Shown here piece after piece: positions 50,657 to 55,482 of a stretch of 64,000 nt of DNA (position 1 is the stretch's first letter; each line of letters begins with the position of its first letter). The translations under genes and the position numbers were made by a program. The notes beneath the pieces were generated by a model. That model saw nothing but the letters and a program-made list of their open reading frames with translations. It ran no database searches and was not told where the DNA came from. The DNA lies in contig CP089279.1 of NCBI GenBank assembly GCA_023920165.1, positions 1,240,001 to 1,304,000 of the forward strand, given 5' to 3'. Origin of the DNA: Curvularia clavata. Taxonomy: Eukaryota.

Positions 50657-53600
50657 TCAGAAGCGCTGGTCTGTGTAAACTTTGATTCTGCCGGATCGCA
50701 TGCGCCTCGCCGTAACCTTGATCGGTCTGTCATTGTGTTTTCGATATCGCACTCGAGATTCGTAGTGGTGTAGGCCAAGTACTAATACACTTCTACAAAT
50801 AGCCTTGCCCATGTTATACGATGTCATTCCGATCCCAGCCAACAAGAGGGCAGTATCCATTATCAACCAATTGTTGGGCACTATCCAGGTCGGATTGCTT
50901 GTGAAGAGTGCCGGATTTCTACCTCGCCCCGCGACAGCCTTCTTTGTTCCTGACCCTTGAGATTGACCTATCCACGGGATCGATTTTGCATTTCGCCAAT
51001 GTACCCGAGCGTCCTTCTCCCATTGTATGATCTCGTTGATATACCTAATGCCTTCGGTAATTGAGATGCCTGGACACTCTTCCTCACTATCGACCTGGAA
51101 GGAAGATTCGATATGAAGAGATATGAAGCCTTTGAAATTGGAGTCGTCAAGAGTCTCTAAGATCTTGTCACGGCATTGCGCTAACGTGACTCTAGCCCCA
51201 CAGATATCGCTCTCGTCTATACTAAGATTGGTCTTAGATTCTTCGATGATATCCTCTAGCAACGCAATGGCTTCATCGAATCTGCCTTGAATCTGCAAGT
51301 GACGGACATAAGGCAGAACATAGAAGGCTATATCAGTTTTGTTATATCGACCTGATGTTTGGCGTCTGCGGGCACTTCCAAGGGTTTCTTTGAAGTGCCT
51401 TCGTGCTTCATTCTGGTGCTGACGATGGGGTGATTCTGCAAGATTCTCTGCTAGCCGACACAGTGCTCGGAGACGATCATCGTCGAATTCTTCTCGTGAT
51501 TTGCAAAGAATAGTGGCGACGTTGCGACGAAGTGGCAAGGCGGTTTGGAAGCAACCCAGGTTTTCCAAGGCCTCAGCGAGGAATCGCGTGGATATCCTGC
51601 ACTTAGGACCATACCGCCCATACTTGCGGATGTGTTCCTTGTAGACAAGGACACGTAGGATGAGGCCATACACACACAATGAATAACTTTGAGGTTTCGC
51701 CTTGAAGCAAGCGATTCCAAGCTGTTCCATGGCCCACAGTTTGGTATCTTTGTCCGCATTTGCTTCCTCTTCCAGAGATCTGAGACATCCCTTGAGCTCA
51801 TTATAAGCTAGTCTGTGTATGCCAAATTTGTACGGCATACGAATTTGACAGGCCGCAACTCTGATGCGGGCTCTGATCGCCAAAATATTCTGGGGGCCAA
51901 GATGTCTGGATCTGTGTTCTAGGGCTTCGCGAGTTAGGACGTGTGCCTCCTGCAAACAGTCTCTTGAACACTCCATCATTAGTGTCCAGGCAAGATTTTC
52001 CTTTGCCATCAGCACTCGTGGATGGTCGTCTGATAAATGCTGAGATTCTATTCTTAGTACATCCTTTTGGTAGGCTAGAGCCAGCTTTTGCTCCTGCTCG
52101 GTTCCACCAGCATAGCTGTGTGCAAGATTTGTCTTCGCATCGAGGATTTCCGGGTGGTCAGGACGATAGCGCTTTCTTTCCAAAGTCTTCAAAACCCATT
52201 CTCGCTTCTTTTTTGCTTTCTCAAGGCGACCAAGTCTTTCGCAGATTATCCCCAGTCGCTTCTGCACGATAACAACTCGATCCTCATCTTCTTTACACAC
52301 TCTCAAAAGTCTCTCTCTGAGATTTTCAAGTAGCGTATAAGCTTTAATGCATTTGCCGAGCTTGGTGAGACTTGCCGCAACGCTAAGTGTTGCAAAAAAA
52401 TAGTCCATGCTCGAGGGATCTCGCTGGTGATACTGGAGCACCAAGTGGCGCTGCTGGAGTGCCTTTTTGTGTTTTCCGAGAGACTCTAAGCAGTTCCCCA
52501 GCTGGGTGCGGGAGTCCTGGACACATGGCTCGTCCGGGTCGTGTGACTCGAGACGTGCCTGGAGCAAATTCTTAGCGTACGGAGTGACTTCCATCCACCT
52601 TCCTTGTGCTCTGAGAATCTCAATTTGTTCATATAATAGATCCTGAAGTGACCGAGTCCGGGTCCGTGATAGGCTGTCTAAGAACGGTTCATCAAAGAAA
52701 GGCGAGAATGCAGCAGAATCTTTCGTGCGGGGGTTTGTTGACGATCCCTGACAATGTACCCAGTGTGGGTAGAGTTGAGAGAGAAGCACTGTGCGCTCTG
52801 ATGATGTTCTTACTGAGTGGAACTGTCTTGCCGAGGCAATTATGGTTGCCGCGGTCGTACGCCATTGTTCATAGCATCCCGGGTCGTCTCGTAAAGTGTC
52901 GTTCGCCCATGACAGGAAAAGCGAGTGTATGGAGTATGCCCGACGTGACTCGTTGTCGTGGATCTTCAGAATATGATAAATATCGAGCTCTTGGATCAGA
53001 ATTGACCACTCGCTCATCGACCATCTAGAACAAGGGTAGTGACCAATGAGGGCTTCGACTTGCTTTTGAACCCACTTGGACTGACGTTCCCGTCCTTCAT
53101 CCTTGTCATCGAAGGGCATTTCATCTAGAGGGATGTTTTCTGGGAGAAAGAAAGATATCAATCGCAGAATGTCGCGGACAGACAAACCGTCCTGAAACCC
53201 CTCCTGGATTTGATGCACCGATGCCGATATCACAGCATAGACCGAATGCTCAGACGTTCTCGCATACTCCAGAATCTTGTGACGTTCGACCTTGAGTAAC
53301 CTGAGATATTTCTCAGGCGAGATCGGAAATTTTCCCTGGTTTCGTTGTTTTAGAAAAGCGCCAGCGAGATCCAGGGCAAATGGCAAGTAATCCACTTCTT
53401 TGGCTATCTCCTCGAAGATCACATTGTCGCTTTCAGCTGCCCCTGCAGTCTTTCTTAACAAGCTGACAGCTTCGTTTGGCTCCATTTCTTGACATTCTAC
53501 CTCTTTGTACACCAAAGCTTCAACGACGAAGTATTCTGGCCGTAGCTTAGTGTTTACGATAATGGATCCCTGGCCCTTACATGGCACAATCTCGTGCAGA

Positions 53601-54238
53601 AGGCCCAATACCTTTTGGCACATATCATCCAAAATCAGTAGCCAGGGCTCATTCTGTGCTTCCAGGCATGAACGAACAGATTGCGTGGAAAAAGGGTTGT
53701 TTTCGTCATGTGCGCCAAGTTGGGACATCGCCGCTGATAAGTCCGTCTCGAAGACTTCTCTCGTATTCGCTCCAATCCACCAAGCATGTCTGCAGCGATG
53801 ATCTGGACCACTATTTGAAAGTATTAGCACAACATCCATCCTACCCTAACACTCAAAGCTGCCTTACCCACTATAGTATTCTCTCGCAACATCGCGACTG
53901 AGCGAAGTCTTCCCAGTACCAGGACCACCGTGAATAATCAGCACCTGCGGAGAATTTGTGTCCTGATCTGACAGCAATTTTGGAAATATGTCCTGGTAGC
54001 TTCTTCGACGCTGGTAGAATTCCGAAAGTTTATTGATCTCTGCTTGCACAGAGGTTGACGCACATGATTTTCGTTCCCCGTCTTTTGGTAAAAGGACGTC
54101 TGCGGGTCTGGCGTCCGTGCTAGTTATATGGCTATAGGGTGTGTTGTTGTAGAAATTGATCAAGCCTTGGTTATTGACAACTTGCAGGCCTTGGTAGTTA
54201 GATCCTGTGATGCTCATGGGTGGGCTTTGCATGTCCAT
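50657..54238 (-). CDS. Fungal NLR: N-terminal amyloid-type motif, NB-ARC (STAND) NTPase, TPR repeats (~1174 aa)
   Basis: P-loop HGGPGTGKTSLS in exon 1; intron 53867-53811 joins exon 2 in frame; Walker B WLLILDD; YLPFALDLAGAFL (GLPLA-like); TPR-like repeats (PDHPEILDAKTNLA, DDHPRVLMAKENLA). Confidence 0.9.
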
Positions 54239-54592
54239 AATGGCGCAAGCAAGACATGTCCACGTGATGAAGGATGTGGATTGTTAAGGAGGGGAGTAGG
54301 AGGAGGCTTTGCGCGAGCCCTTTAGGTGATTCCGTCCAAGGGCGTCGCTATGTTGTTACCTATGAATTACGCGCTAAACCAAAATAAAAGAGTGGCTTTC
54401 ACTACTAGCACTAGCGCGGGGGCCAAATCTCATCAGCCGTCTTCAGCTGACCCCGCGCCAGCATTTAGTTTGTGGCTGAGCATGTTGTGAACCTTCCCAC
54501 CAACTGCTATATATAAGAGTATCTCGAGCAATCTATTCCTTTATCGCTGTTGTAGGTTATTGTCGTCCCCTGATCATCGCACATCACGAGAT

Positions 54593-55482
54593 ATGGATCC
54601 GTTCTCCATTACCGCTGGTGCTGTCGGAATTACCAGCTTCGCCCTTTCCAGCATTGACCAACTTCGCAAGACGATTGACAGCCTCGCCGAAGCTCAGGAC
54701 GTTTTCCAGGACATCACCTCAAACCTAGAGGCCATTCAACGCCCTCTGATCGCTCTTCAAGAGTCTAGATTTCCAGACGGTCTATCGTGCACTGCCGCTA
54801 AGGAGGATTTGGAGAAAACGGGCATGGCGGAAGCTGTCAATAAGTGCGGCCAAGCATGCTCTGACTTCAACGTACAACTTGGCAAGTGGACAAAACACTC
54901 TACTAATACGAAACTCACTTTACGTGATCGTCTGTCAGTCGGCGTGTGGAATAAAGAAAAAATCTGTACATTCAGGACCCGTGTCCAAACTTGCCAGTCA
55001 ATTGTTCAGTTTTCGATCGAGAGCACTCAACTGTTCGTTCAAGCTCTGCATCACCTAGTCGTTATGTATACTAACATGATTGAAGGCTGGTTCAGCTTCA
55101 CTCTGCTTCTGCTTCTGATGCATATGGTGAGGAGCTGAATAAGCGTCTCCAAGCACTCGAGAACAACCTCCAGCAGCACATTAATCTGACAAAAACGCTT
55201 TGTGATGAAGCCCAGAAGCGCAAGGAGCAACTCAGCAAGGAACCTGAAGAAGAGGAAGATGATGGCGGCGCTCAAAGGAAGCTGGCTATCCAGGAAGTTG
55301 AGGAGCAGTCACGCTTGTTGGAGGCTGAAGCATCCCTCGCAAATGCTATTTCTTCGCGGCTCCTCGCCGAACGGTCAAGCCAGGCGAGTGGCAACACGTA
55401 CAGTGGAACGATATCAGGGACCAACCAAAATGGGATGCAGGTTGTGAACAACCCTGGTGTTATCAACTGGACGTCAAAATGA
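54593..55482 (+). CDS. HeLo-like (fungal STAND N-terminal type) effector with C-terminal amyloid-type motif (278 aa)
   Basis: N-terminal hydrophobic helix MDPFSITAGAVGITSFALSSI. Intron 55033-55085 (GTTCGT..CTAAC..AAG) joins exon 2, which ends SGNTYSGTISGTNQNGMQVVNNPGVINWTSK*. Confidence 0.85.

Follow-up and report, generated by a model that had tools for sequence, protein, structure and literature searches.

We analyzed a 64,000-nt stretch of the Curvularia clavata genome (assembly GCA_023920165.1, contig CP089279.1, positions 1,240,001 to 1,304,000 of the forward strand; hereafter, the window), in which positions 50657 to 55482 hold two head-to-head genes: one on the minus strand encoding a NOD-like receptor (NLR) with NB-ARC and tetratricopeptide repeat (TPR) domains, and one on the plus strand encoding a HeLo-like effector. 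Each protein carries a copy of a 21-residue motif, referred to here as the tag. Gene models were built from splice signals and then compared with deposited proteins. The spliced NLR model (1174 aa) and the spliced effector model (278 aa) equal, letter for letter, the deposited proteins P0051 (yc1106_08069) and P0003 (yc1106_08070), both named Curvularia clavata hypothetical protein at the source and bearing consecutive locus tags. A previous annotation made from the DNA letters (the sequence-only reading) had held that both genes are split by an intron, and indeed a 57-nt NLR intron and a 53-nt effector intron are needed to obtain these proteins. The same reading placed the two genes 354 bp apart, which is the distance between the NLR ATG at 54238 (−) and the effector ATG at 54593 (+); this divergent intergenic region (54239 to 54592) presumably serves as a shared promoter.

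On the minus strand, NLR exon 1 (53868 to 54238) encodes Met1, an 8-residue leader, the 21-residue motif, a linker and Walker A (GGPGTGKTS). The NLR intron (53811 to 53867, GTAAGG...CTAAT...ATAG) has the same junction in deposited P0051, and its removal joins the P-loop exon to the remaining NB-ARC, which opens exon 2 (50657 to 53810, with the stop codon at 50657-50659) and is followed by a helical middle, the TPR region and a C-terminal tail. The NLR tag, SITGSNYQGLQVVNNQGLINF (54152 to 54214, minus strand), occupies residues 9-29. The receptor had been described as opening with this motif, which holds for its N-terminal location but not for the very start, since eight residues (MDMQSPPM) precede it; the third in-frame Met stands immediately before the tag. 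On the plus strand, effector exon 1 (54593 to 55032) encodes residues 1-146 plus 2 nt, the intron spans 55033 to 55085 (GTTCGT...TACTAAC...AAG), and exon 2 (55086 to 55482, with the stop codon at 55480-55482) completes the HeLo-like domain and goes on to encode a charged helix and a disordered tail that contains the tag, TISGTNQNGMQVVNNPGVINW (55408 to 55470; residues 255-275). Re-derivation from the sequence returned these same coordinates for both copies and their ungapped identity of 12/21.

The effector tag comes in frame only after splicing, and transcript contigs bear this out. A joint between 55032 and 55086, with 53 nt skipped and GT..AG borders, was found in contigs of three of four sequencing runs: X6, on record as a metatranscriptome, and X1 and X2, whose RNA nature is a guess. 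The splice is therefore real. Spliced effector contigs running through the tag came from X1 and X2 and ended at 55496 and 55500, and coverage by the fourth run, X4 (recorded as RNA-seq), is limited to part of effector exon 1. The RNA check proposed for both introns thus succeeded for the effector, whereas the NLR intron has no contig cover and was neither supported nor contradicted: positions 53700 to 54553 are without contig cover in the four runs, which gives no evidence either way on NLR expression or its intron. Effector contigs start at 54559 (X2, the 5′-most) or 54592. The sequence TATATAAG at 54511-54518 (+), within the intergenic region and ~40-50 nt upstream of the 5′-most contig end, is plausibly the effector TATA box, contigs being unable to define the transcription start.

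Scanning of full-length P0051 with Pfam models revealed an NB-ARC match at residues 94-321 (PF00931, E 1.5e-9, 37.9 bits with the cutoff at 23.5; 53219 to 53959, minus strand, a span that takes in the intron) and a TPR_12 match (E 3.6e-19, 69.2 bits), which together with TPR_1/2/14 delimits a TPR region at residues ~557-986 (51224 to 52513, minus strand). No Pfam domain was found in residues 1-93, in agreement with the earlier claim that this NLR has no folded N-terminal effector domain. Both the NLR and the effector reading frames are intact, and the receptor retains Walker A and a Walker B-like LLILDD.

The HeLo-like identity proposed for the effector was upheld by the profile search, which matched PF17111 over residues 1-199 (E 2.3e-17, 63.6 bits with the cutoff at 27.2; 54593 to 55242, plus strand, intron included), while neither PF11558 nor PF14479 was matched in the Pfam scan. 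An AlphaFold2 model built from 46 aligned relatives shows eight helices with a mean predicted local distance difference test (pLDDT) score of 79.5, and predicts the tail, residues 247-278, to be disordered (pLDDT <50). The effector had also been credited with an N-terminal hydrophobic helix. Residues 3-21 (54599 to 54655, plus strand) are indeed hydrophobic (mean Kyte-Doolittle 1.34) and uncharged, with no D, E, K or R between D2 and D22. In the AlphaFold2 model residues 1-14 are coil of low confidence, and the first helix begins at residue 15. By likeness to HET-S and HELLP (PMC7885112), this segment is a candidate membrane-inserting element.

Comparison of the two whole proteins pointed directly to the tags. 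The best Smith-Waterman alignment of whole NLR and whole effector pairs NLR residues 9-29 with effector residues 255-275 (score 68, 12/21 identical), so that no other part of the NLR matches the effector tail as well as its tag does. Shuffled effectors scored 39 ± 5 and 0 of 1000 reached 68; nor did any of 5000 shuffles of the two 40-aa termini alone (the last of the effector and the first of the NLR), which kept their N/Q/G-rich composition. BLASTP with composition adjustment returned E 3e-5 for the NLR against the effector. The likeness between the tags exceeds chance. A six-frame profile scan of the window, with a profile that included both copies, found only these two. N, Q, G and beta-branched residues abound in the tags, which carry no charge, and the tag cores read G-L-Q-V-V-N-N-Q-G in the NLR and G-M-Q-V-V-N-N-P-G in the effector. 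According to section 19 of PMC9815663, most PP and HRAM motifs have their start at positions 5-9; here, the start is residue 9.

A second effector allele was represented by one X2 contig (depth 7.8) with eight coding differences. Four of the eight fall in the 63-nt tag and produce Q261I, N269S and P270S, leaving the G-M-Q-V-V-N core unchanged (Fisher p = 0.0016); beyond the tag, the allele shows I28V and three silent changes only.

One alternative is that the tag likeness arose by chance between low-complexity termini, or that the effector is a pigment-cluster accessory protein unrelated to the NLR, a reading we regard as barely credible. Its chance version is largely refuted already by the composition-preserving terminus shuffles. 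Its pigment version draws on the current Pfam name of PF17111 (PigL_N), on relatives named 'Azaphilone pigments biosynthesis cluster protein L N-terminal domain-containing protein', and on a non-ribosomal peptide synthetase gene ~18 kb away; yet those names are automatic and derive from the domain label, and supplement file 7 of PMC9815663 groups PF17111 with PF14479 as the effector class of the partners that bear the motif.

We then placed the tag among the tails of effector relatives. A search with effector exon 1 yielded 48 matches, with HeLo-like domains 46-81% identical over the aligned length, and their tails fall into three types. Type A comprises the effector described here, two metagenome fragments, and relatives named for Paraphaeosphaeria sporulosa (KAL5370840.1 and KAK7177527.1), Melanomma pulvis-pyrius (KAF2788888.1) and Ascochyta clinopodiicola (KAJ4361601.1). 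Type B tails (22 alignment rows), mostly under Penicillium, Aspergillus and Talaromyces names, read ...GNTY..TFSGSHNSGMQIG[HY]S.G.INW; Eurotiales relatives 56-59% identical to the effector over the aligned length have the tail ...GNTY..TFSGSHNSGMQIGHSTGTINW, and across the Eurotiales group the HeLo-like domains are 47-59% identical to that of the effector, again over the aligned length. PF17046 matched both type B tails tested, P0007 (E 9.9e-12, 44.9 bits, residues 248-275) and P0009 (E 2.8e-10, 40.3 bits), and is the precomputed annotation of 14 of the 48 exon-1 matches. This family is the PP motif: bioRxiv 10.1101/2020.01.06.895854 writes 'Ses_B (PF17046, aka PP-motif)', and PMC12261475 'PP (misnamed SesB)'. 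Type A tails share the type B frame (GNTYSGTISGTN..G.Q), but [VL]-V-N-N replaces I-G-[HY]-S, so that the core reads G-phi-Q-phi-V-N-N rather than G-phi-Q-phi-G-[HY]-S.

Type C tails, from Pleosporales, Xylariales and others, carry a longer two-repeat sequence (...ALVG.PESVVGKI...GS.A.VGV). This group is made up of P0013, P0022, P0028, P0030-P0032, P0034-P0039 and P0041-P0049, 46-55% identical to the effector over the aligned length, and includes one protein named for Curvularia kusanoi. These tails look HRAM-like, but PF11558 gave no match on P0030, the one tested.

The history of the tail was read from a maximum-likelihood tree of the first 200 residues, that is, the HeLo-like domain, with 46 rows (P0015, with a truncated tail, P0017, a fused model, P0050, a fragment, and P0022 were left out, while P0078 and P0088 were taken in). 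All four type-A proteins fall in a single clade (100/100) on a long stem (0.32), within 21 type-B rows and one atypical row, and tail type tracks the helical-domain tree, changing 5 times where shuffled labels would lead one to expect 19 changes. Orthologous effector tails also align column by column across the PP and V-N-N forms, and a profile of the 22 canonical (type B) tails recovers the effector tag among 2465 six-frame peptides (22 bits, E 1.4e-5). Since the V-N-N clade nests inside the PP-tailed group, the V-N-N tag is a derived form of the PP motif. The intron site seems conserved in the type-A clade as well, because the unspliced gene calls of two close relatives, P0086 and P0089, read through the same position and end a few residues past ...ESTQL.

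The receptor tag, in turn, resembles its own partner. Over the 21 motif columns of the tail alignment, the NLR tag scores 68 against its own effector tag (12/21) and 68 against the P. sporulosa type-A tail (11/21), compared with 22-47 (4-9/21) against the 22 type-B tails, and the profile of the 22 canonical tails did not recover it significantly (5.5 bits, E 2). Because scores favor V-N-N tails and the canonical profile misses it, the receptor tag has, on sequence comparison, departed from the canonical form along with the effector it is paired with. Co-variation of the tags between partners, which the sequence-only reading expected across homologous pairs, was accordingly seen once, in this pair, and was not repeated in any orthologous pair.

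Relatives of the receptor were sparse. A search with NLR exon 2 returned only three, 37-39% identical and all N-terminally truncated gene calls; NLR residues 1-125 retrieved only the NLR itself; and a metagenome scan gave eight loci with NB-ARC proteins ~25% identical. When the tag profile was run against 1.84 billion representatives, 20 matches at E ≤ 0.001 were obtained, mostly effector tails, and the sole full-length NLR with an N-terminal tag among them was P0051, which is itself in the profile. The matches also included P0082, a 171-aa fragment that resembles the first exon of an NLR, and P0076, in which the tags are internal to an all-in-one protein.

Two single proteins, P0017 (Talaromyces amestolkiae, 1383 aa) and P0076 (Arthroderma uncinatum, 1061 aa), combine a HeLo-like domain, PP motif(s), NB-ARC and TPR. 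P0051 is collinear with P0017 from the tag (residue 9 versus 254) through NB-ARC and TPR, at 22% identity (E 3e-13). P0017 and P0076 may be genuine all-in-one receptors, or else separate genes may have been merged in their annotation.

The arrangement of an NB-ARC/TPR NLR, an adjacent HeLo-like effector and a shared tag is the layout of fungal amyloid-signaling pairs that the sequence-only reading had named, and equals that of PNT1/HELLP (PMC7885112). As in PNT1/HELLP of Podospora anserina and CgPNT1/CgHELLP/CgSBP of Chaetomium globosum, the genes are adjacent, the NLR combines NB-ARC with TPR and the N-terminal tag is short; as in PNT1/HELLP, the HeLo-like effector (278 aa here, 271 there) ends in a single Q-centered, N/G-rich tag. 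We therefore propose, by analogy and with a probability of about 0.8, that the pair is a two-gene NLR/HeLo-like cell-death signaling module of the PNT1/HELLP type. Unlike CgPNT1/CgHELLP/CgSBP, it has no tagged third partner of the lipase type in the window; indeed, neither a lipase or PNP-type gene nearby nor a third tag was found there, so the module comprises two genes rather than three. The PNT1/HELLP system has functional data: according to PMC7885112, PNT1(1-31) and HELLP(214-271) are both prion-forming, can convert one another and direct full-length HELLP to the membrane region. By contrast, the pair described here is known from sequence, models and effector transcripts.

The mechanism would follow from that analogy. 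As its family suggests, the NB-ARC/TPR receptor would sense a cue via its TPR part and oligomerise; oligomerisation would gather NLR residues 9-29, which could then adopt a cross-beta (amyloid-like) fold. As for HELLP and HET-S, this fold would template the effector tag at residues 255-275, and the helical domain would be released, its uncharged N-terminal segment moving to the membrane with death of the cell. We infer amyloid folding, templating and membrane killing by this pair from these likenesses. In NWD2/HET-S and FNT1/HELLF, too, an NLR N-terminal repeat templates the effector C-terminal prion-forming region, after which a membrane-targeting segment kills (PMC7885112), and the parallel here is one of analogy. 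These systems differ from the Curvularia pair in that HRAM effectors have two 21-residue repeats forming a beta-solenoid, against one tag copy per protein here, and in that HET-S has a HeLo rather than a HeLo-like domain. A complex prediction in which NLR(1-45) and effector(234-278) were each present twice scored 0.01 against a mark of 0.34 and carries no weight either way.

Several observations weigh against a module of this type. Since no RNA contig covers the NLR, its intron, start codon and expression are supported by the deposited annotation and by domain continuity. Fold searches of the effector led to generic helical bundles only, neither to HET-S nor to MLKL: the model had no Foldseek match against the PDB at E ≤ 0.001, its best VIA-align wide hits were designed or generic helical bundles (Z 10.0), and a sequence-profile search of the PDB gave 0 matches. 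The TPR-region DNA shows no high-identity tandem repeats by Tandem Repeats Finder, unlike pnt1, whose repeat number varies between isolates (PMC7885112). Both tags lack the second glycine of the PP core, reading G-[LM]-Q-V-V where PMC7885112 and PMC5485727 define G-phi-Q-phi-G. PF17046 had no match at E ≤ 10 on P0003, P0004, P0051 or two 36-aa motif pieces, and the Pfam scan likewise matched neither PF11558 nor PF17106 to either copy at E ≤ 10. The canonical-tail profile, as said, passes over the receptor copy. No second NLR with a V-N-N tag was found in the searches described above. Finally, amyloid formation by the V-N-N tag is argued by analogy with PP.

The tag was thus not assigned to PP, HRAM, sigma or RHIM by the profiles to which the sequence-only reading had pointed, none of PF17046, PF11558, PF17106 and RHIM matching at E ≤ 10; HMMER filters drop most weak matches, and these misses on the tags are an incomplete test. 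The sigma motif spans ~40 residues (PF17106), against 21 in the shared stretch here. By our own reading, the tag resembles mammalian RHIM (RIPK1/RIPK3) in a core [IVLM]-Q-[IV]-x-x-N followed by a turn, and a RHIM-PP resemblance is stated in PMC7885112 and PMC5485727; yet RHIM has G after phi-Q-phi, and the pathway position and partner proteins differ.

A rival view sees in the pair an allorecognition (heterokaryon-incompatibility-like) locus, or else a relic in decay, rather than a functional immune module for sensing pathogens; the tag likeness would then be inherited from a PP ancestor, and the Gly-to-Val change would have weakened or abolished templating. The broken G-phi-Q-phi-G core, missed by PF17046 in both copies, and the X2 allele, with four of eight nucleotide differences and three amino-acid changes in the tag (Fisher p = 0.0016), speak for it. 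Decay sits poorly, however, with two intact frames, a receptor that keeps Walker A and LLILDD, an altered core (V-V-N-N) that is identical on both partners, and [VL]-V-N-N kept in effectors named for four Pleosporales genera. Identical partner cores together with retention across four genera argue for maintained function rather than decay, and we consider this alternative unlikely.

Even less probable, in our estimate, is that the shared tag serves an ordinary non-amyloid contact, peptide to peptide or peptide to domain, as a docking or degradation signal without templating. The tag does lie outside all curated amyloid-motif models tested, and a cross-beta structure is proposed by likeness. 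Against this stand its lack of charge and its wealth of N, Q, G and beta-branched residues. Its placement (NLR residue 9, the extreme effector C-terminus, a disordered tail) and its descent from PP-tailed relatives match the amyloid signaling motifs of PMC9815663 (sections 19 and 24).

The cell-death module is thus of a kind already known, and its new part is a tag subtype that the Pfam PP model misses. PMC9815663 counts 296 NLRs with PP and 37 neighboring C-terminal partners, and its Table 1 catalogues dozens of neighboring pairs of this sort. PP-tailed Eurotiales relatives (P0005-P0040) share the tail frame (GNTY...SG..N.G.Q....G.INW) and the intron site with the Pleosporales clade, and differ from it in keeping G-[HY]-S after phi-Q-phi, where that clade has V-N-N and is missed by PF17046. 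The V-N-N variant was not found described in the literature searched, including most of the PMC9815663 supplement files, whose remaining parts may list it. In that supplement LQVVN occurs three times, two of the passages, as shown, lying inside an unrelated gapped alignment, and 'Curvularia' and 'Melanomma' have 0 occurrences in its readable portion.

Among described classes, the 'PP-like' NLR39 (Wojciechowski et al. 2022) is similar in being rare, PP-related and present in Ascomycota including Dothideomycetes, and it has one adjacent NLR/HeLo-like pair in Paraphaeosphaeria sporulosa (PMC9815663 supplement file 7, row 388). NLR39 is described as G-hydrophobic-Q-hydrophobic-G in PMC9815663, and its 12 visible rows are NACHT-WD, NACHT-ANK or unannotated, none NB-ARC/TPR. 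Assignment of the tag to NLR39 was rejected as unproven, given that its visible NLRs are NACHT-type or unannotated and that the comparison was one of descriptions only.

Templating of amyloid from NLR to executioner links fungal cell death with mammalian necroptosis, and a central question is how different amyloid tags are insulated from each other. The Curvularia pair offers a clean test case, as its effector relatives differ mainly in the tag core and the cognate receptor has the same altered core. If the variant does not cross-seed canonical PP, a three-residue change would be a minimal specificity switch; if it does, the G-phi-Q-phi-G hallmark would be less essential than assumed. A tentative extension, which we hold to be rather doubtful, is that the Q-[VL]-V-N-N tag constitutes a separate, non-cross-seeding channel in which the PP glycine and the next two residues were replaced in step on both partners. 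If true, it would be a natural example of fungi minting orthogonal amyloid signaling wires, and the tag-clustered allelic changes would point to ongoing diversification of specificity in the species complex. Because the tag escapes the curated PP profile, surveys that depend on profiles count too few of these systems in Pleosporales, the order to which many plant pathogens belong.

The neighborhood of the pair in the window was also inspected. Just past the NLR 3′ end lies a 125-aa open reading frame (49906-50283, minus strand) that looks by eye like a transposase fragment and has no Pfam match at E ≤ 0.001. An intact-looking pogo/Tc5-type transposase of 557 aa is encoded further away at 24677-26347 (−), with matches to DDE_1 (E 5.6e-30), HTH_Tnp_Tc5 and HTH_psq. 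The non-ribosomal peptide synthetase occupies an open frame of 3044 aa (26799-35933, minus strand) with a multi-module architecture (AMP-binding, Condensation and PP-binding). On its flanks are genes for a Zn2Cys6 regulator (22614-24434), an aromatic amino-acid lyase (43014-45230) and an ankyrin protein, as well as major facilitator superfamily transporter pieces. This region is possibly a secondary-metabolite cluster upstream of the pair.

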